Below are positions 8,311-61,666 of a stretch of DNA of 64,000 bases, one piece after another (within the stretch, counting starts at the first letter, position 1; each line of letters starts with the position of its first letter). Source of the stretch: Octopus vulgaris (Eukaryota). The position numbers and the translations under genes are program-made. The stretch covers positions 40,796,001-40,860,000 of the forward strand of contig OX597837.1 in the NCBI GenBank assembly GCA_951406725.2, in the 5' to 3' direction. The notes below the pieces were generated by a model. It saw only the letters and a program-made list of their open reading frames with translations, had not been told where the DNA came from and ran no database searches.

Positions 8311-9186
8311 CGTCGTTATTATTCGTCGGGAACGTTTTTATTTTTGTTAATTTTTCATTTTCGTTATATCGTGAAAAAAAAATGAAGAAACACGATAGAA
8401 AAATACCAAAACCAAAACCCCAAACAAAAAAGAAAGTAGAAACAGAACTCAACAATGAACACTGCAAAATATATTTGTATGATCTTGCCGCCGTCTTTAT
8501 GGAAATAGACAATAAATATTATGAAAGATGAAGCCAAAGAACTATGTGTTTCTCCTTAGCAAAACACACAGATTAGCGATCCTTTACGCTCCATCACACC
8601 TATTGCAGCGATCGTCAAACCTTTACTATTTTTCGTTGCTATTTTATTTCTTTGTTTGGATTTTCTTTTTTTCTATATAGCACGACGGACAAAATGTTTA
8701 GCATCATTTCTTCCGGCTTTTTTTACGTACCAAGTTCGAATTCCGCTGAGGTCAACCTTGCTGTTCATTTTTTCGGGGTACCAGTTGAACACTGGCTCGA
8801 TATAGTCGGCCTCAAAATTGCTGACTGTGTGTCAAAATAAGAAAGGATCATCATTGTTGAGGTGTAAAACCAGCAGAATCGTTAGCGTTGATTTTGCCGT
8901 TCATCCCCTCGGGGTACGAGGAAATAATTTGTGGTTGAGTACTGGGGGTCAGTATAATCGACTTCCAACACCCACTCCACCAAAAAAACGTTTCAGTCCT
9001 TGTGCCTGTAAAAGAAAGGATTACTTTTACTGTTATGGCCGTAACGGAACTTAAGAGGAGAACTTCCAAATGGATGCATTCGACTTGGTAGAAACAGCAG
9101 CCAAATAGCGGAAAGTCCCTGAAGTATACTTAGTACGTAAAAAAAAAAAGCCGGAAGAAATGATGCTAAGCATTTTGTCCGTCGTG

Positions 9187-9229
<43 letters not shown>

Positions 9230-9303
9230 CAAAAAATTCAGCATAAATTATTTGCCACCAGCGGTCTATATATATATACATATATATATACATATATACA
9301 TAT

Positions 9304-9391
<88 letters not shown>

Positions 9392-9584
9392 TAATAATAA
9401 TATGACAACAAAAGAATGAATGAAACCTTCATATTATGTAAAATAGAGGAATTTATCTATAAATATAATATGAGACAATTAGTTGGTTGTCATAATAAAA
9501 CTCAGAGTTTCGGATACCGGGGCTCCGGCCTCTTATGAGAATCAAATAAGGTTCGAAAATCGATTAAAGTTATTCATCATTTTA

Positions 9585-9942
<358 letters not shown>

Positions 9943-17519: not shown

Positions 17520-17799
17520 AAGGAATACCAAAAATAAGACAAGAACGCAAAATATTCGGACAAACGATACAAAAAAAAATAAGGACGGGGCGTTCGGAGT
17601 TTTTCTTCAGTCGAGTTTCAGATTATCTTAGCAATTTCGGCTGGTTATGCTCGATATATATATAAGATTAATCAGCCGAAATTGCGAAGATGATCCGGTT
17701 CTTGACTGAAGATTGAAGGCTTCGAATGTCCCGTCCGTGTTTTTGTATCGTCTACTAAATGTTTCACGTTCTTGTCCCAGTTTGTACTTATATTTTTAC

Positions 17800-17800
<1 letters not shown>
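17520..17800. mobile_element. Two oppositely oriented copies of a structured, TA-inserted element (CAGCCGAAATTGC...CTGAAGA family)
   Basis: Homologous to 24923-25352 and 41910-42200; T-rich 3' tail abuts (TA)n. Confidence 0.6.
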
Positions 17801-17852
<52 letters not shown>

Positions 17853-17937
17853 TATATATATATATATATACATATACACATATATTTATAAATGTAGCCA
17901 CTACACATTTTTTCTCTCCTTCTTTCTTTCTGTGTCC

Positions 17938-17973
17938 CTTTCTGTAGAAGAGCGTAGGCTCGAAACGTAAAAG
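17938..17973 (+). ncRNA. Minimal type I hammerhead-like motif, A6U core
   Basis: CTTT-CTGTAGA-A-GAGC-GTAG-GCTC-GAAA-CG-TA-AAAG: stem I CTTT/AAAG, stem II GAGC/GCTC, palindromic ACGT stem III, GUA site. Confidence 0.6.
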
Positions 17974-18176
17974 ACTTTTTCAATTCCAGAACACTATACT
18001 AATACATCTGTTTGTTTTCTACACCACCTGTCTTCGTCTTTTCTCTTTTTTTTTTTTTTTGTGAATTCTCCCTATTTATATATATTCTTTCCTTCTTTCC
18101 TGAGCGTCCAATAATACTATATTTGTTCCACGTCCTCGCGTTGTTGTGTTTTTTTGTGCTTTCTTGTTTGAATTAA

Positions 18177-18224
<48 letters not shown>

Positions 18225-18227
18225 TTT

Positions 18228-18420
18228 ATCCTTTTACTTGTTTGCGTCAGTTCCATGTAGCCTTGCTGGAGCACCGCCTTGAAGCGTTTAGTCGAGCAAA
18301 TCGACCCCCAGGACTTACATTTTAAGCCCAGCAATATTATATCGGTGCCTTTTGCCGAACCACTAAGTTACGGGGGCGTAAAGACAAACGTTGTCAAACG
18401 TTGATGGGGGATAAACACAG
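18228..18420 (-). mobile_element. Family A SINE 3' half
   Basis: GCTGGAGCACCGCCTT...GCCGAACCACTAAGTTACGGG. Confidence 0.75.
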
Positions 18421-18729
18421 CACAAAGGATATTGTTCAATAGTCTCAGGGTTCAAAAATATAGGGAAAGTGAACAATGGATTACATTATCTTGTTGCTAC
18501 TTTATATATATATTTATATTGTTTTTTTTTAGGTTCACGGTCAAGTGTGTTTGAGATGGGTAATAGTTAATACAATTGAGGGGTGATAGTTAATACTTGT
18601 CTAGGAATATATTTCATCACCCCCGAAGAGTTGAACTCTGCGAGATTGAAACGCAGGTCATTTAAGAGCGGGAACGAATGCCACGAAACATTTTCCCCAC
18701 GTTATAACCACTCTGCCAACTAATTAACT

Positions 18730-18945
18730 AATCCTTTCTGCTAAGGGCACAAGGCCTGAAATTTGGGGACAGAGGAATAGTCGATTACGTCGACCCCAGT
18801 ATTTCACTGGCGCTTAATTTATTGACTCCGAAAGGAAGAAAGGCAAAGTCGATCTCTGCAGAATTTGAACTCGGAACATAGCGAGAGGTGAAGTGATGCT
18901 AAGCATTTTGCCCGGGTGCTAACGATACTGCCAGCTCGCTGCCAT
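18730..18945 (-). mobile_element. Family B SINE
   Basis: Same diagnostic blocks as the other family B copies. Confidence 0.8.
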
Positions 18946-19841
18946 ACAAGTAAGCTAATCATATTTTCTTATGTCTATGTGTGCGTGGATGTGTGCGTGT
19001 GCATGTGTGTGTATGTGTGTGTGCGTGCATTTGGGTGGATGTGTGTGGATGTGCTTGGATGTGTGTGTGGCAGTGTTTGTGAGGTGTGGTTGTGTGTGTA
19101 AACGTGCCTGTGTACGTGGTGTGTATACATGTGTACATACGTATGTGTATGTATGTATATATATATGTGTGTGTGTGCGCGTATGTGTGTGTGCGTGTGT
19201 GTGTGTGTATGTGCATTCCCATCTAAAGAAGCAGTCGGTTATTGCAACCCCAATCCACGGGGAAGGCCGTTGATGGATGACCCTGAAACAATACCATTCC
19301 GTCTCTCCTCCTCTCTTTGTATCTCCCTCTCTCCTTCTTCCTTACTCTCTCTCTCTCTCTCCCCATCACCTTCCACTCTCCCTCTTCCCTCTCTTATATT
19401 ATAATTTATCTCTTCATTTTCATTTCATTCAGTTGTCGCTTTCTCACTCCTCTTCATTTCTTTCTCTTCCTTTTCCTTTTTTTAACTCTACACCCAGCTC
19501 CCATCTTGCTTTGTTTCTTTCCTTCTTCCTTTCTTCCTTTCTATCTATCTTTATTTGTTTATTTATTTTGTATACTTCTTATACTTCTAACTTCATCACC
19601 CGAATCCACAGCATCACAACTCCCCCCCCACACACACAAACCCTCTGCTTCTGTCTATTTCTTTTTTTATACACACTCACTGACACACATCTGTATAAAC
19701 ACACGCATCTAAACACAGATACAGAGACATATATACACACGTATATATATATATGTATGGAATTTAAAGAAAAACAAAAGACGAAAACAGGTGTATAAAC
19801 ACAAACGTGTATTAGTTCAACGCTGGGGAAGGTGGGAACGT

Positions 19842-19877
19842 TTCTCACATTTCGAGCCTACGCTCTTCAACAGAAAG
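19842..19877 (-). ncRNA. Decayed minimal hammerhead-like motif, A6U core
   Basis: Minus strand CTTT-CTGTTGA-A-GAGC-GTAG-GCTC-GAAA-TG-TG-AGAA; the cleavage triplet is mutated. Confidence 0.45.
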
Positions 19878-19967
19878 GAACACGAAGAAATAAATAGAGA
19901 GAGAATAAAATAAGCTTTTGGAGCTAGCGGTCAGTCATGGCGGCTGGATGTGCGTGGATGTGTGTGG

Positions 19968-20004
<37 letters not shown>

Positions 20005-20200
20005 CACAGGGGACTAAACATAGGGGTGACAAACAAGGACAAAGGGATTAAATCGATTACTTCGACGCCAGTGCGTAACTGGTACTTAATTTATTGACCC
20101 CGAAACGATGAAAGCAAAGTCGACCACGACGGTGTTTGAACACGAAATACCGCTAAGCATTTCGCCCGGTATGCTAACGAGTCTGCCAGCTCGCCGCCCT
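20005..20200 (-). mobile_element. Family B SINE
   Basis: Diagnostic blocks; ends in TCTGCCAGCTCGCCGCC. Confidence 0.8.
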
Positions 20201-20269
20201 TTGTACGTATGTGGTGTATGTGTGTATACAGATATATACGTGTGTGGGGGCGTGTATGTATATGTGTAA

Positions 20270-20744
20270 TTTTTACCACCTAATGCAACAATCAATGCTC
20301 AAGTCTACTGTCAGCAATTAAAGCGTTTGAACGAAGCTTTGGAGAAAAAAGACCCGCTTTAGTGAATCGAAAAGAGTGATGTTTCATCAGTACAATGATC
20401 ACATCACAGAAGATCGAAGAGCTTGGTTGGGAAAATATTCCTCATCCACCTTATTCTCCTGACCTTGTTCCTTCAGACTACCATTTGTTTCGTAGTTTAC
20501 AGAATCATTTGGGGGGGCATAATTTTTGCAAGCCAAGAGGAGGTTGAAACTGACGTTTCAGAGTTCTTCGCTTTGAAACCAAAAGAGTCTTACATTGATG
20601 GGATTAAAAAGCTTGTAAATAGATGGAAGGAAGTGATAGATAATCAGGGAAAGTACATTGATGATTAAATTTCAATTAAATATAGCATTCGATCACTTGT
20701 TTTCTTTATTCAAAATTCGAACTAAACTTATGGGATGGCCTGAT
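20270..20744 (+). mobile_element. Mariner transposase 3' remnant with right TIR
   Basis: Frameshifted translation LPPNATINAQVYCQQLKRL...ELGWENIPHPPYSPDLVPSDYHLFRSLQNHL...FFALKPKESYIDGIKKLVNRWKEVIDNQGKYIDD; ends TTATGGGATGGCCTGA-TA. Confidence 0.92.
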
Positions 20745-20891
20745 ATATATATATATATATATATTTCCTGTTTGGATTTGGTTTGCAAGATTTTTTATGT
20801 GAGTGCGTGTGTTCAAGTGGAAATTTTACCGGTGAGTGTGTTAGATTATAAGGCACTAAAAGAGAAAGATTCTCCCCAGAAAGAACAGTAT

Positions 20892-20947
<56 letters not shown>

Positions 20948-21984
20948 TCAGGGTGAGTACTTGATAATTATAATGTACGTATGTACGTATTATAATGTAC
21001 GTATGTACATGTGGGTGTGTACACGTATAATGTCCGTGTATACATGCGGATATTCTGTTGTATGTATGTATATGTACGCGTGGGCGTGTGGGTGTGTGTG
21101 TGTTTATGTACATGTTTACAAGTGAGTGCGTGTGTATGCTTATAGGCTTGGAGCCGTGTATGCGCGCGTATATGCACGCGTGTATATGGGTGTATGTATC
21201 CATGATGGTATGTATGTACAAGATGACCAATTAATTCAAAGAACTAGATTAAACTCTCAACAGCTCTGATTTACAACACATTAGGTCCCCAGACGACACT
21301 GTTGATTTATTGACACCCAAAACTTCTACAACTAAATTTTATCAATCTCCTGACCACCATGTTTGGTCCGTAACCTCTATACATCCCTTATCTTTATATT
21401 TTTTTACACTTTTATCATGTTTATTCCTATTTTTAATTTTTTTACTTTTTACTTTTATTTCTATTTCTATTTTTACTTTATAACCTTATGCCTTTACATT
21501 TATTTATATTTCCTTATATTTCTTTATATTCTTTATACCCCCTTTACATCTCCTTATATCCCTCTATATCTTTATACTCTACATTTTTATATTTTTCTAT
21601 ACTTACACTTTTTATACATTTTTTATCCCTCGTCCTGAATTCTCGCCCCTCCATCTTCACGTCTATATATGTATTTATTTATTTACATTACTTCAACATC
21701 CAAATTTCCTCATTCTACATTGAGAGAAGAAAGAGATGGACGCTTCAATTCTATGCTGCTGCCGCATTATGTCGTACGCGAATGAGAGGATTTGCATCCC
21801 CAACCAAGAATTTTTGATGTAACACATGTCCTTGTGGAAGCTGTTGTGCGCGGCTGAAGAAGGCCACAGACATACATTATGCATTGTTATAAATCTGTCT
21901 AATAAAGGCCCGAAACATATGTACCGCTGAATCCTTCGAATCATGTTTTTATTTTGATCAATTTTTATATATATATATATATAT

Positions 21985-22027
<43 letters not shown>

Positions 22028-22086
22028 CAGTCAAGTCGAATAAATGAACAATATATGTATATATATATATATATATACACATACAG

Positions 22087-22118
<32 letters not shown>

Positions 22119-22619
22119 GTATATATATATGTATATGTATGTGTATATACACACATATGTACATATATAGATGCACATTTAAACACGCACATATACACAG
22201 GCACACCATCCTTGTTCCCCTAATAAACCGCTAAAGTTTTCGTTTTCATTTTACAACGATTTCGCTCGCCGCGCACAAACCCCTTACAATTATTTATTTA
22301 TTCATTTATTTAATTTTATTCATTTCATTTTATTTATTTTTTCTATATTTTTATCTGTTTTATATATTTACTCAATTTTACTCGTTTCATTTTACTTTTA
22401 TTTATATTTATGTTTATATTTTTATTTATATCCATTTTATTGTCTCTTTAAATTCACCCCGTTTTATTGTCAGGCGACACTTGAATGGATTCGCCAACAA
22501 ATAAATGACAATTTAATAACTGTGAAGTTTAGGGGCCATCGACCAACCGGCCAACCAGCCAACCGGCCAACCAGCCAACCGGCCAACCAGCCGACTAGTC
22601 AACAAGCCGACAGAATTGT

Positions 22620-23160
22620 AATGATAATGATGATGATGATTATGGTGTTGGTGGTGGAGGTCGTCGTCGTCGTCGTCGGCGTCATCCTGTTGATGATGCT
22701 GGTGATGGTGGGGGGTAGTTGCAGTAGTGGTGACGGTTGTGATGACGATGACGATAATGAAGAGGGCGATGGTGGTGGTGGTGGTGGTGATGATGATGAT
22801 AATGATGATGATGATGATGGTGATCATGATCATGATGTTGATGATGATGATGACGAATACGATGACGATGATGATGATGATGATGACGATGATGATCATG
22901 ATGCTGATGATTACGGTGACGATAGTGATAAGGACGGCGACGACTATGAAGCTGCTACTATTGTTGCTGCTGCTGATTATGATGATGGTGATGACGACTA
23001 CGACGACGACGATGATGATGATGATGACAGTGATGATGATAACGATGATGGTGATAATGACAACGACGACGACGATGACGAAGTTGACGATGATGATGAT
23101 GATGATAATGATGACGACAACGGTGATGATGATGATGATGATGAAGATGACTATGGCGAC
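22620..23160. repeat. (GAT)n/(GAC)n degenerate trinucleotide repeat
   Basis: Direct reading. Confidence 0.9.
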
Positions 23161-23244
23161 ACGAAACAAATATACAAAATTAATTAAAACTATATCTTCA
23201 AATTCTCCCTCCCCACCACCCTTTCTCTCTGTCTGTGCATGAGC

Positions 23245-23302
<58 letters not shown>

Positions 23303-23929
23303 GTGCCTGCCTGTGTCTTGTTTCCTCTGTGGTTAATGATCGAGGATAATTAAAAAGAGAAGTTAATTACATTTTAAACAAAATCAACGGCAGCGCCACC
23401 GCCGTCGCCACCACCACCACCACCACCACCACCACCACCACCACCACCAAAAAGAACAACAACATCAACAACAATAGCAAGCATTTAAACGTGGCTTTTT
23501 ATTCTTCGCGTCGTTCACACCTTAACCTTACGCGAGCGGTGGCGGGACAAGCGACAAGCGGACGGGCGGCGGGCGGCGGCATGCGGCGGGCGGACTGCGG
23601 AACGGGCGGACGGCAGAAAGACACAGAGGAAGAGAGACAGACAGACAGACAGATAGACAGAGACAGATAGAGAAAGATACAGAGAGAGAGAGAGAGAGAG
23701 AGATAGAGAGAGAGAGAGAAAGAGATAGAGAGAGAGATAAAGAGATAGAGAGAGAGAGAGCAGCTTATGAGGCGTGGGAAGAGAAGGAGGGGGAGTAGGC
23801 GGAGGAGGAGAGAAACAGTGGCTGAAGGGCACGGGTCGAATGGGGTTAGGTAGAGAATCATAACCATATCATACAGAGGAAAAGGAAACACCGAGGTACA
23901 GTCGGTTAGTGAGGGGAAGGAGGTGACTC

Positions 23930-23961
<32 letters not shown>

Positions 23962-24017
23962 TGTATGTGTATGTGTGTGTGTGTATGTGTGTGTGTAGCT
24001 GGATTGTAAAAATCGTG

Positions 24018-24120
24018 GAGGCGCAATGGCCCGGTGGTTAGGGCAGCGGATTCGCAGTCATAGGATCGCGATTTCGAATCCCAGACCGAGCGTTGTGAGT
24101 GTTATTGAGCAGAAAACACC
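24018..24120 (+). mobile_element. tRNA-derived SINE head, interrupted by a mariner fragment
   Basis: GGAGGCGCAATGGCCCGGTGGTTAGGG (A-box), TTCGAATCCC (B-box); a SINE tail resumes at about 24590-24650. Confidence 0.7.
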
Positions 24121-24526
24121 TCCGGTCAACAGAAGAGAGCCATTCATTCTTCATGACAATGCTTGACCACACGTTTCACTAATGACCCTCCAGAAATTGA
24201 GGGAATCTGGCTACGAAGTTTTACTCCACCCAGCTTATTCCCCAGACCTTTCTCCTACCGATTATCCTTTTTTCAAGCACCTTGACGGCTTCTTGCGGGA
24301 GAAGTAGTTTCAAAAATCAAACCGATGCTGGAAGTGCGTAAAAAGAGTTCATCAGCTCCAGAACTCCAGATTTTTATGATATCGGAGTATAAACAAACTT
24401 AAAAATCGACGGCAGAAATGTGTTGAATATAATGGTGCTTTAATGAGTAAAATTTCTGTATTGTTGAAATATATTGTGATGAATTTCATGTTTCAAAATT
24501 ATACTTACTATTCACTCAGCCCGATA
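24121..24526 (+). mobile_element. Mariner (cecropia/Hsmar1-like) transposase 3' remnant
   Basis: VNRREPFILHDNA*PHVSLMTLQKLRESGYEVLLHPAYSPDLSPTDYPFFKHLDGFLREK, containing HDNA and YSPDL motifs with stops. Confidence 0.9.
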
Positions 24527-24650
24527 TTTCTTAGAGCCATTCAGCGTCACTTTCTAGCATGTGGCGCTATTTATTATTGTCCCTATTATAATTGCCCCAG
24601 CATGGCCACAGCTCATGAGCTGAAACTGGAATCAATCAATCAATCAATCA

Positions 24651-24709
<59 letters not shown>

Positions 24710-24760
24710 GCCATGATAGATGGCTAGCCACTACACATTCTTTATTTTCTCTCCTCGTTT

Positions 24761-24796
24761 CTTTCTGTGGAAGAGCGTAGGTTCGAAACGTTAAAG
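24761..24796 (+). ncRNA. Minimal type I hammerhead-like motif, A6U core
   Basis: CTTT-CTGTGGA-A-GAGC-GTAG-GTTC-GAAA-CG-TT-AAAG; lies in an element homologous to 17895-18075. Confidence 0.55.
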
Positions 24797-24887
24797 ACCT
24801 TTTCACTTCTCGAGCATTATACTAATACATCTGTTTGTTGTCTACACCATCTGTCTTTGTCTTTTGTTGTTTCTTTTGTGAATTCTC

Positions 24888-24922
<35 letters not shown>

Positions 24923-24926
<4 letters not shown>

Positions 24927-25051
24927 AATCAGCCGAAATTACTACGATGATCCGGTTATGACTGAAGACTGAGGGTTTCGAATGTCCTGTCCGTGTTTAT
25001 TGTGTCGTCTTCTAAGAGTTATACGTTCTTGTCCATGTTGTATTTTTCTAC

Positions 25052-25111
<60 letters not shown>

Positions 25112-25352
25112 AACTGGGACAAGAACGCATAGCATTTAGAAGACAATACAAAAAGCACGGACGGGACATTCGAAGCCTTCAATCTTCAGTCAGGAACCGG
25201 ATCATCCCCGCATTTTCGGCTGTTTAATCTTGAGATAGCTCGAATCTGGCCAGCCCCAAGGAAAAACTCAGCTAAGCGCATTAGATTCCTTGGAAAAAAG
25301 CTTCGAATGTATACGAAACAAGGATGGAAAACGGACGATGTTACACGAATAT
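24923..25352. mobile_element. Tail-to-tail inverted pair of structured elements around one (TA)n tract
   Basis: 24923-25045 is the reverse complement of 25108-25230; both 3' tails point into the TA run at 25058-25109. Confidence 0.75.
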
Positions 25353-32933: not shown

Positions 32934-33026
32934 TAATTTGGTACGAGCGTTTCGTACTACATCATTTTAATAAATGTTGTAAGTATTACAACAGTTTTAA
33001 AATGCTGAGTACTCATCAGCCAATTA
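32934..33026 (-). ncRNA. Type I hammerhead ribozyme, canonical core, long stem II
   Basis: TAATTGG-CTGATGA-GTACT...AGTAC-GAAA-CGCTCG-TA-CCAAATTA; all core nucleotides and three stems present; GUA cleavage site between 32942 and 32941. Confidence 0.85.
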
Positions 33027-34108: not shown

Positions 34109-34886
34109 ATTTGTGTGTGTGTGTATGTGTGTGTGTGTGTATGTGTGTGTGTGTGTATGTGTGTGTGTGTGCGTGTATTAAAATAACATCTTTGGCGACT
34201 TAACTTAAAATTCCTTAACGACAACGTAACCTTCAAATGACTAAGGTATCTTCGGCCTGTTGAGTGGTTAGCAGAGTACCCTACTTCATCAGAGGATCTG
34301 CTATCTAGGAAACGAATGTAGGTTGGCTTTTACCTGCTCCACTTTCTCAATTTAGATTTTTTTTTTTTTGGCATTTATAGCAAGCCCAGTTGCTCACTGT
34401 GATCTGTAAAAAATTTCTTTTCTGTTTATCCAACTTCTATACGGGAAAAACCTTCGAGGCCGATAAATTATTTATGTTCTTGAACGTTGTTTTTTGTTCT
34501 TACCACGGACTGTTCGAAGCTTACAAATTTCCTACACTTAAATCCTCCGATCTTCTAAGTATATATATATATGTTTTGTTTTTTCCTTCTCATAAGGGCC
34601 GGTTTCCCGGTTTCCTTGGCCTGACGCCGGTGAACTCCAAGATGCAGGAGGAGAGAGTGAGAGAAAGTTGTGGCGAAAGAGTTAGCAGAAGTTCGCCATT
34701 ACCTTCTGCCGGAGCTGCGTGGAGCTTAGGTGTTTCGCTCATAAACACACACACATCGCCCGGTCTGAGATACGAACCCTCGAGTCCGTTGCTCCAACCA
34801 TTAGGCCTCCACCCTCCGACCTCGTGTGTACCGTTGGCGATTTTTTTCCCTCTGTCTTCCCTTCTCTGGATCTTTCCTTCTCCTAT

Positions 34887-34921
34887 GTTTCCGACGAAGA
34901 GCTCCGCTCGAAACGTTAAAC
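34887..34921 (+). ncRNA. Minimal type I hammerhead-like motif, U4C core
   Basis: GTTT-CCGACGA-A-GAGC-TCC-GCTC-GAAA-CG-TT-AAAC; stem I GTTT/AAAC covaries with CTTT/AAAG of the A6U family. Confidence 0.65.
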
Positions 34922-35018
34922 CCTCCTTCTTCCCTTCTTTCCTGAGCGTCCAATAATACTTTATTTGTTCCACGTCCTCGCGTAGTTGGGGTTTTTTTGT
35001 GTTTTCTTGTTTGGATTA

Positions 35019-35061
<43 letters not shown>

Positions 35062-61575: not shown

Positions 61576-61666
61576 TCAAAATAAGCAACAAGAATGACTC
61601 CGGTAATTTGGTACGATCGTTTCGTACTACATCATTTTATTAAATGTTGTAAGTATTACAACAGTT
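61575..61666 (-). mobile_element. 5'-truncated copy of the 32.9-kb hammerhead element (3' half of the ribozyme only)
   Basis: Near-identical to 32910-32996; stem III is the perfect palindrome ACGATCGT; flanked by (TA)n on both sides. Confidence 0.8.

Follow-up and report, generated by a model that had tools for sequence, protein, structure and literature searches.

We analysed a stretch of 64,000 nucleotides from Octopus vulgaris (GenBank assembly GCA_951406725.2, contig OX597837.1, positions 40,796,001 to 40,860,000 of the forward strand), referred to as the window and numbered from its first letter. It contains three copies of a minimal type I hammerhead motif in which the adenosine expected at core position 6 is replaced by uridine (U6). 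They belong to a family located in the terminal repeat of a young, abundant Penelope-like retroelement, and we lean towards the view that the motif is a slowed, dimer-dependent self-cutting ribozyme. The general layout is stem I - CTGTNGA - A - GAGC GTAG GCTC - GAAA - CG - TH - stem I', with the features of the minimal hammerhead ribozymes (min-HHRs): stem I, an extra base at 9/10.1, G10.1-C11.1, GAAA, a palindrome at 15.2-16.2 and UH. A preliminary description of the window had placed the cores CTGTAGA at 17942 (+), CTGTTGA at 19873 (-) and CTGTGGA at 24765 (+). All three were recovered at these positions, and a 26-nt pattern matched the window exactly three times, at these U6 copies (0.00 expected from 100 shuffles). 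The length of 36 nt assigned to the motif was also correct (CTTT...AAAG unit, 17938-17973); the extra A between A9 and stem II, present in all copies, had been overlooked.

A fixed U6 next to a freely varying position 7 had been proposed from the three copies, and this holds for the whole family. With the rest of a 29-nt pattern held fixed, the 2.8-Gb source genome, which is rich in microsatellites, contains U6 in 15,153 of 15,703 exact matches, A6 in 159 and one of the other two bases, C or G, in 391 (reversed controls 0). The consensus is U6, and the family does not carry the A6 hammerhead core CUGANGA. A core-blind search, in which stem I was fixed and the 28 inner bases were left free, yielded 21,888 matches (30 in the control). 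Counted by hand, 98 of the first 100 listed were family members, 96 with U6, 2 with C6 and none with A6, and no alternative core was apparent among these 100. Position 7 was T in 31 of the 98 members, A in 27, C in 24 and G in 16, and each of the four bases is fixed in a subfamily.

The carrier had escaped the preliminary description: the motif is the hammerhead of the pseudo-LTR (pLTR) of a Penelope-like element (PLE). Copies reaching further upstream enter a GIY-YIG coding region, and a search with the reverse transcriptase (RT) end gave 150 scored matches among 12,071 candidates, many of them equal-scoring and with long open frames. Our long-frame set comprises 20 of about 22 loci whose frames have a length of at least about 1,000 aa. 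At these 20 loci the 4.5-kb unit codes for one open reading frame (ORF) consisting of an RT, a CxxxxCxxC linker and a GIY-YIG domain. The RT was recognised above cut-off by the Pfam model RVT_1 (E 2e-7) and the GIY-YIG domain below cut-off (E 4e-4 to 5e-3); the motif LYIGQTG is present in 19 of the 20 ORFs, as is a CSRPRCRTC-type linker preceding the domain. The proteins share a mean identity of 96%, and 10 of the 20 are open from the start MPDPRSY. The motif lies about 110 nt before the 3' end of the element in all 20 loci. An upstream partial copy with a further motif is found in 17 of them, which is the head-to-tail partial tandem typical of pLTRs, and the tail-to-head junction is identical in all 19 loci that reach it. 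Upstream partial copies extend beyond the motif by 0.4 to more than 2 kb. Up to three units occur in tandem, with 94-99% DNA identity to one unit, and the tandem copies of the motif that had been postulated do exist, 4.5 kb apart, in full-length elements. TA tracts at the copy ends indicate (TA)n targeting.

The same architecture has been described for Neptune PLEs (Craig et al. 2021, PMC8557442; here and below we refer to those parts of the cited papers that were available to us): a single ORF with the RT followed by a C-terminal GIY-YIG domain, a CX2-5CxxC linker, pLTRs made up of partial tandems, insertion into (TA)n and a hammerhead within the pLTR. By these clade features we assign the carrier to the Neptune type, with a C-terminal endonuclease (EN+); the linker is shared by Nematis PLEs (PMC8557442). 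All 37 hammerheads flanking the 20 long-ORF elements have U6. The young, ORF-bearing element is thus itself in the U6 state, which has not come about by the decay of dead fragments.

How the motif was constrained after the fixation of U6 was studied on 131 distinct copies. A second base reaches at least 10% in 2 of 28 motif columns (positions 7 and 17), versus 71 of 139 flank columns. A tree built from the flanks only (short alignment; 9 of 127 branches starred) has the shape of a ladder, along which position 7 is strongly clustered (17 changes vs 65 in shuffles). On the basis of this tree 98 of the 131 were assigned to six subfamilies, whose members diverge by 11% to 3% from their own consensus. 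Between the six consensuses 67 of 140 flank columns differ, versus none of the 26 other motif columns and none of the 7 stem I columns, and positions 7 and 17 change in 7 of 10 steps (Fisher p 3e-5). Counted as column-steps, 103 of 633 changed in the flanks and 0 of 130 in the motif. Over the six subfamilies position 7 reads U, C, G, A, U(C), U and position 17 reads A, A, U, A, A, U. G occurs at position 17 in no subfamily, and C or G in only 236 copies genome-wide. The only changing positions are the two that are free in a hammerhead, and the aligned copies show a constraint that is hammerhead-shaped.

U6 motifs whose stem II differs from that of the family were also searched for, which gave 36 matches (3 in controls), mostly double mutants of the family. 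About six older U6 copies carry G-C instead of A-U at pair 10.2/11.2, together with other loops. In 16 hand-picked related rows (13 U6, 3 A6) this pair is A-U in 7 and G-C in 8; two-sided changes affect 4 of 8 pairs, a value at least equalled in 95 of 500 shuffles.

Two candidates for an A6 master were rejected. A cluster of A6 copies with 16-kb spacing on C18, considered as a full-length A6 master, is a 16.3-kb segmental tandem duplication (about 76.86-76.90 Mb; L075, L076) that multiplies one A6 copy, plus an unrelated PLE fragment. A separate A6 master subfamily was likewise discarded: ten A6 copies (the first 10 of 159) are scattered over four subfamilies, each with the local base at position 7, and fit mutants that arose after insertion. 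L031-L033 may form a minor A6 branch of old age. The genome also has older related motifs that combine A6 with GGAC/GTCC stems, which suggests that A6 is the ancestral state; the decay of their flanks precludes a tree.

Each of the window copies is an independent truncated insertion, the three coming from different subfamilies; they would be by-products without individual function. The first is a 5'-truncated 3' end (a pLTR fragment) at 17895..18072 (+), located between (TA)n tracts and assigned to the A7 subfamily by the flank tree (L001). Its motif at 17938..17973 (+; core CTGTAGA, U6 = 17945, N7 = 17946) is composed of stem I CTTT/AAAG, the extra A, stem II GAGC-GTAG-GCTC, GAAA, CG and T-A; hammerhead numbering predicts the cut after 17969. 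The second, at 19756..19943 (-), is also 5'-truncated and belongs to the oldest (U7) subfamily according to the flank tree. In its motif at 19842..19877 (-; core CTGTTGA, C3 = 19873, U6 = 19870) the 3' half has decayed: C15.2 is changed to T, G stands at position 17 and stem I contains a mismatch (GAAA-TG-TG, AGAA). The third, a 5'-truncated copy of the G7 subfamily at 24708..24888 (+), starts at TCGCCATG behind a (TA)n tract and has its motif at 24761..24796 (+; core CTGTGGA, U6 = 24768, predicted cut after 24792). The stem II GAGC/GCTC that had been ascribed to all three copies is present in the other two; the third has GAGC/GTTC with a G-U pair. The motif is indeed a minimal hammerhead whose palindromic ACGU can pair only between two copies, but the window trio cannot be regarded as tandem partners. 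An Rfam scan of the window gave only microRNA models on microsatellites among the best 150 of 458 matches, and the output of a repeat finder was dominated by microsatellites.

For the monomer with U6 a rod-like fold is predicted: the pairs U4-G16.2, G5-C15.2 and U6-A15.1 zip up the region between stems I and II. The probability of the G5-C15.2 pair was compared between natural U6 and A6 copies; in five of six pairs it was 0.98/0.12, 0.46/0.01, 0.25/0.00, 0.64/0.00 and 0.98/0.08 (U6/A6). In the young motif the rod is the dominant fold (frequency of the minimum free energy (MFE) structure 0.53), and only this motif reaches z -2.3. U6 is thus predicted to create a competing, inactive monomer fold that would hide the core and the palindrome required for dimer formation. 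No support was drawn from cofolding, in which the pseudoknotted dimer cannot be represented.

For a slowed, dimer-dependent ribozyme we propose the following course. Transcription through a tandem would yield an RNA with two motifs. A lone motif would fold as the rod, with the core and the palindrome hidden. Occasionally two motifs would pair via ACGU to form stem III, and the RNA would be cut behind position 17; with the contacts of A6 lost, the rate would be low. Published data point the same way as to the rate: a natural A6C hammerhead has low activity in Mg2+ (PMC3088659, PMC7151607), mutants of the CUGA region are low in a deep mutational scan (PMC9901934), and min-HHRs with A6 cut weakly, slowly in vitro and only as dimers (PMC4209133). 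Most of the RNA that is reverse-transcribed would be uncut, or cut and then re-joined as a circle, so that insertions would read across the cut site. A further step is tentative, and we rather doubt it: U6 could be a selected switch that locks the monomer as an inactive rod and allows cutting only on dimer formation. The C4 of a sister lineage (see below) would then be an independent weakening of the core, and Penelope elements would attenuate their ribozyme so that cut and uncut template RNA are kept in balance.

If cut linear RNA is copied, insertions should start directly after position 17. In the youngest subfamily the sequence continues exactly across the cut site in 2,719 copies, and a pattern requiring truncation no more than 20 nt away from the site gave 132 matches. 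Among the first 100 of these listed, 86 junctions could be scored by hand (14 were dropped owing to an indel, a chimera or a double duplication). Nine of the 86 lie at the cut or one T before it, and no pile-up was seen; 12 lie at the TA in loop II and the rest are spread, following TA microhomology. The missing pile-up fits uncut or re-joined templates and speaks against efficient cutting to linear products. Of 98 copies, 79 have a 5' end no more than 90 nt upstream of the core. The 5' ends of short copies are concentrated at 30-90 nt (window examples 24708 and 19943) and thin out sharply near TCGCCATG; this edge may mark the transcription start in the pLTR. The U6 stretch is contained in 20 sequencing runs under four organism labels, with none listed as RNA. 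In contigs of 8 runs, only guessed to be RNA, we found no pile-ups of starts or ends and one joint, which was not of the GT-AG type.

Several points weigh against a motif that still cuts. The thousands of exact read-throughs and the lack of 5' ends at the cut are among them. A6 is a core residue, and its changes strongly lower activity (PMC3088659, PMC9901934); in the deep mutational scan second-site rescue of CUGA-region mutants was achieved only by a C3-G8 swap (PMC9901934). The rod prediction fails in the sixth natural pair (0.64 versus 0.67 for U6 and A6) and weakens when 60-nt flanks are added (0.27 and 0.02), and shuffled sequences fold as well as the window copies (z -0.2 to -0.9). As to the constraint, the copies were gathered at no more than three mismatches to the motif, many via exact core patterns, and the flank alignment is noisy in pyrimidine tracts, so that change in the flanks is overestimated. 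None of the four bases of loop II (GTAG) has changed between the six subfamilies, which at the rate of the flanks has a chance of about 0.03. Loop II is not expected to matter for catalysis, and its invariance fits recognition by a protein as well.

Such recognition is the core of another explanation, namely that a former, non-cutting ribozyme is kept as a hairpin recognised by the RT/endonuclease or a host protein, with U6 fixed for the stability of the rod. We hold this to be possible, if on the unlikely side. The dominance of the rod in the young motif, the invariant loop II and the absence of insertions ending at the cut site agree with it, as do the published effects of A6 changes and the spread of Naiad PLEs without canonical hammerheads (PMC8557442). 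Against it stands that changes are confined to exactly the two positions that hammerhead catalysis leaves free, with position 17 never G in a subfamily. Moreover, a rod would favour U7, which pairs with A14, yet subfamilies with A7, C7 and G7 have each expanded. That the motif is dead and has hitch-hiked since A6U inactivated a single master would account for the missing footprint at the cut site, and a mutation in one master can be passed on to thousands of copies; drift thereafter is at odds with 0 of 130 motif versus 103 of 633 flank column-steps changed, which already disfavours this reading, and with the putatively compensatory pair in stem II among U6 copies. We give it hardly any weight.

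The opposite case, a ribozyme fully competent in its natural setting, appears improbable. U6 would be tolerated there, or rescued by a protein, another metal ion or the geometry of the dimer, and the cut RNA would be re-ligated into circles that template insertions longer than one unit. A6C hammerheads do cut well in Mn2+ (PMC7151607), and the circular-template model predicts what is seen in the element, i.e. a constant junction, upstream copies extending past the motif and up to three units (PMC4209133). Multimeric read-through transcripts, however, explain identical structures, no ends are found at the cut site, and even min-HHRs with A6 are slow in vitro (PMC4209133). Finally, splicing might be the reason for the fixation of U6, which would lengthen the run of pyrimidines ahead of an AG that serves as a 3' splice site (in CTGTAG, or in the GTAG of loop II); we regard this as very improbable. 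A long pyrimidine tract lies directly upstream in all copies, GTAG in loop II is invariant, and an intron in Penelope of D. virilis ends at helix I (PMC4209133). CTGTAG is confined to the A7 subfamily, though, no conserved GT donor is visible upstream by eye, and the contigs of the 8 runs guessed to be RNA, a weak test, contain no splice-type joint.

The minimal architecture, the extra nucleotide at 9/10.1, the palindrome and the dimer model were already published by Cervera and de la Pena (2014, PMC4209133). The metazoan PLE min-HHRs of that study resemble the U6 family in their location in both pLTRs, the short stem I, the unpaired base 9/10.1, G10.1-C11.1, the lack of a loop 3, the palindromic 15.2-16.2, the mostly dispersed, truncated copies and the requirement for a dimer. 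A Neptune motif from Acropora digitifera has a very similar 4-bp stem II (PMC4209133, Fig. S3). In contrast to the U6 family, all 56 representatives in that figure have A6, which their descriptor required, and the sole core change reported in the available parts of the paper is U3-A8. The paper also stresses high variability within genomes, whereas in the U6 lineage 26 of 28 positions have stayed the same over the six subfamilies. A natural pyrimidine at position 6 is known from the A6C hammerhead of phage Bcep176 (Perreault 2011, PMC3088659; Naghdi 2020, PMC7151607). There it is C rather than U, in a single phage motif that has its own stem III and is neither part of a retroelement nor of the minimal dimeric form. 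Unlike C6 of Bcep176, U6 can pair with A15.1. The literature searched, also with regard to Penelope hammerheads of Octopus, contained no report of a natural A6U (CUGUNGA) family; Lunse et al. 2017, which treats PLE hammerhead variants (cited in PMC6765202) and lies outside that literature, could hold one. New here are the predicted inactive rod with U6 and the insertions without ends at the cut site.

For comparison, a hammerhead at 34887..34921 (+) has the core CCGACGA (C4, A6), stem I GTTT/AAAC and the loop TCC. Its stem I had been read as a compensatory change. The stem is real but belongs to a sister family, of which a truncated copy extends from about 34816 to 35022 with a loop and tail that differ from those of the U6 family; it is not covariation within the latter. 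A 28-nt pattern of the sister family has 13,309 exact matches genome-wide. Among the first 100 listed, about 70 have C4 (CCGACGA) and the remainder are mostly CTGACGA; by these counts it is a second abundant lineage with a changed core. A tail-only fragment of this family, without hammerhead, has inserted at about 18088-18179 (+) into the TA tract that directly follows the first U6 copy. A chimeric motif at C6:14436051 joins stem II and the loop of the sister family to a U6-family tail, which suggests that a template switch from one family to the other took place within the hammerhead.

Other repeats were noted in passing. A family with CTGAAGA followed by CGAA-TGTCC (17668-17800 (+), 24925-25000 (+), 25164-25191 (-) and 42033 (+)) looks hammerhead-related. 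A further repeat ends in GATGTAGTACGAAACG (32948-32994 (-) and 61618-61664 (-)) and is also found just before an RT fragment in L080. The locus L075 contains, at about 8700-9730 (-), a fragment of a different Penelope-like family; in its 3' region TTGAAAA...CGAAACCGGTC is similar to a minimal hammerhead of the U3-A8 kind whose palindrome is CCGG. Open frames at L081:7310-7900 (+), L021 and L037 bear a resemblance to a mariner-type transposase and to restriction-like-endonuclease non-LTR elements.

The U6 family is a one-base variant of the published min-HHR architecture. In a recently expanded family with long, intact ORFs, a core residue has been lost and every other constrained position kept. 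It is a natural test case that separates 'must cut' from 'must fold' for Penelope hammerheads. If the U6 motif does not cut, a ribozyme would have been turned into a recognition hairpin. If it does, the hammerhead consensus would have to be widened at position 6, and searches with the usual descriptors would miss tens of thousands of motifs per genome.

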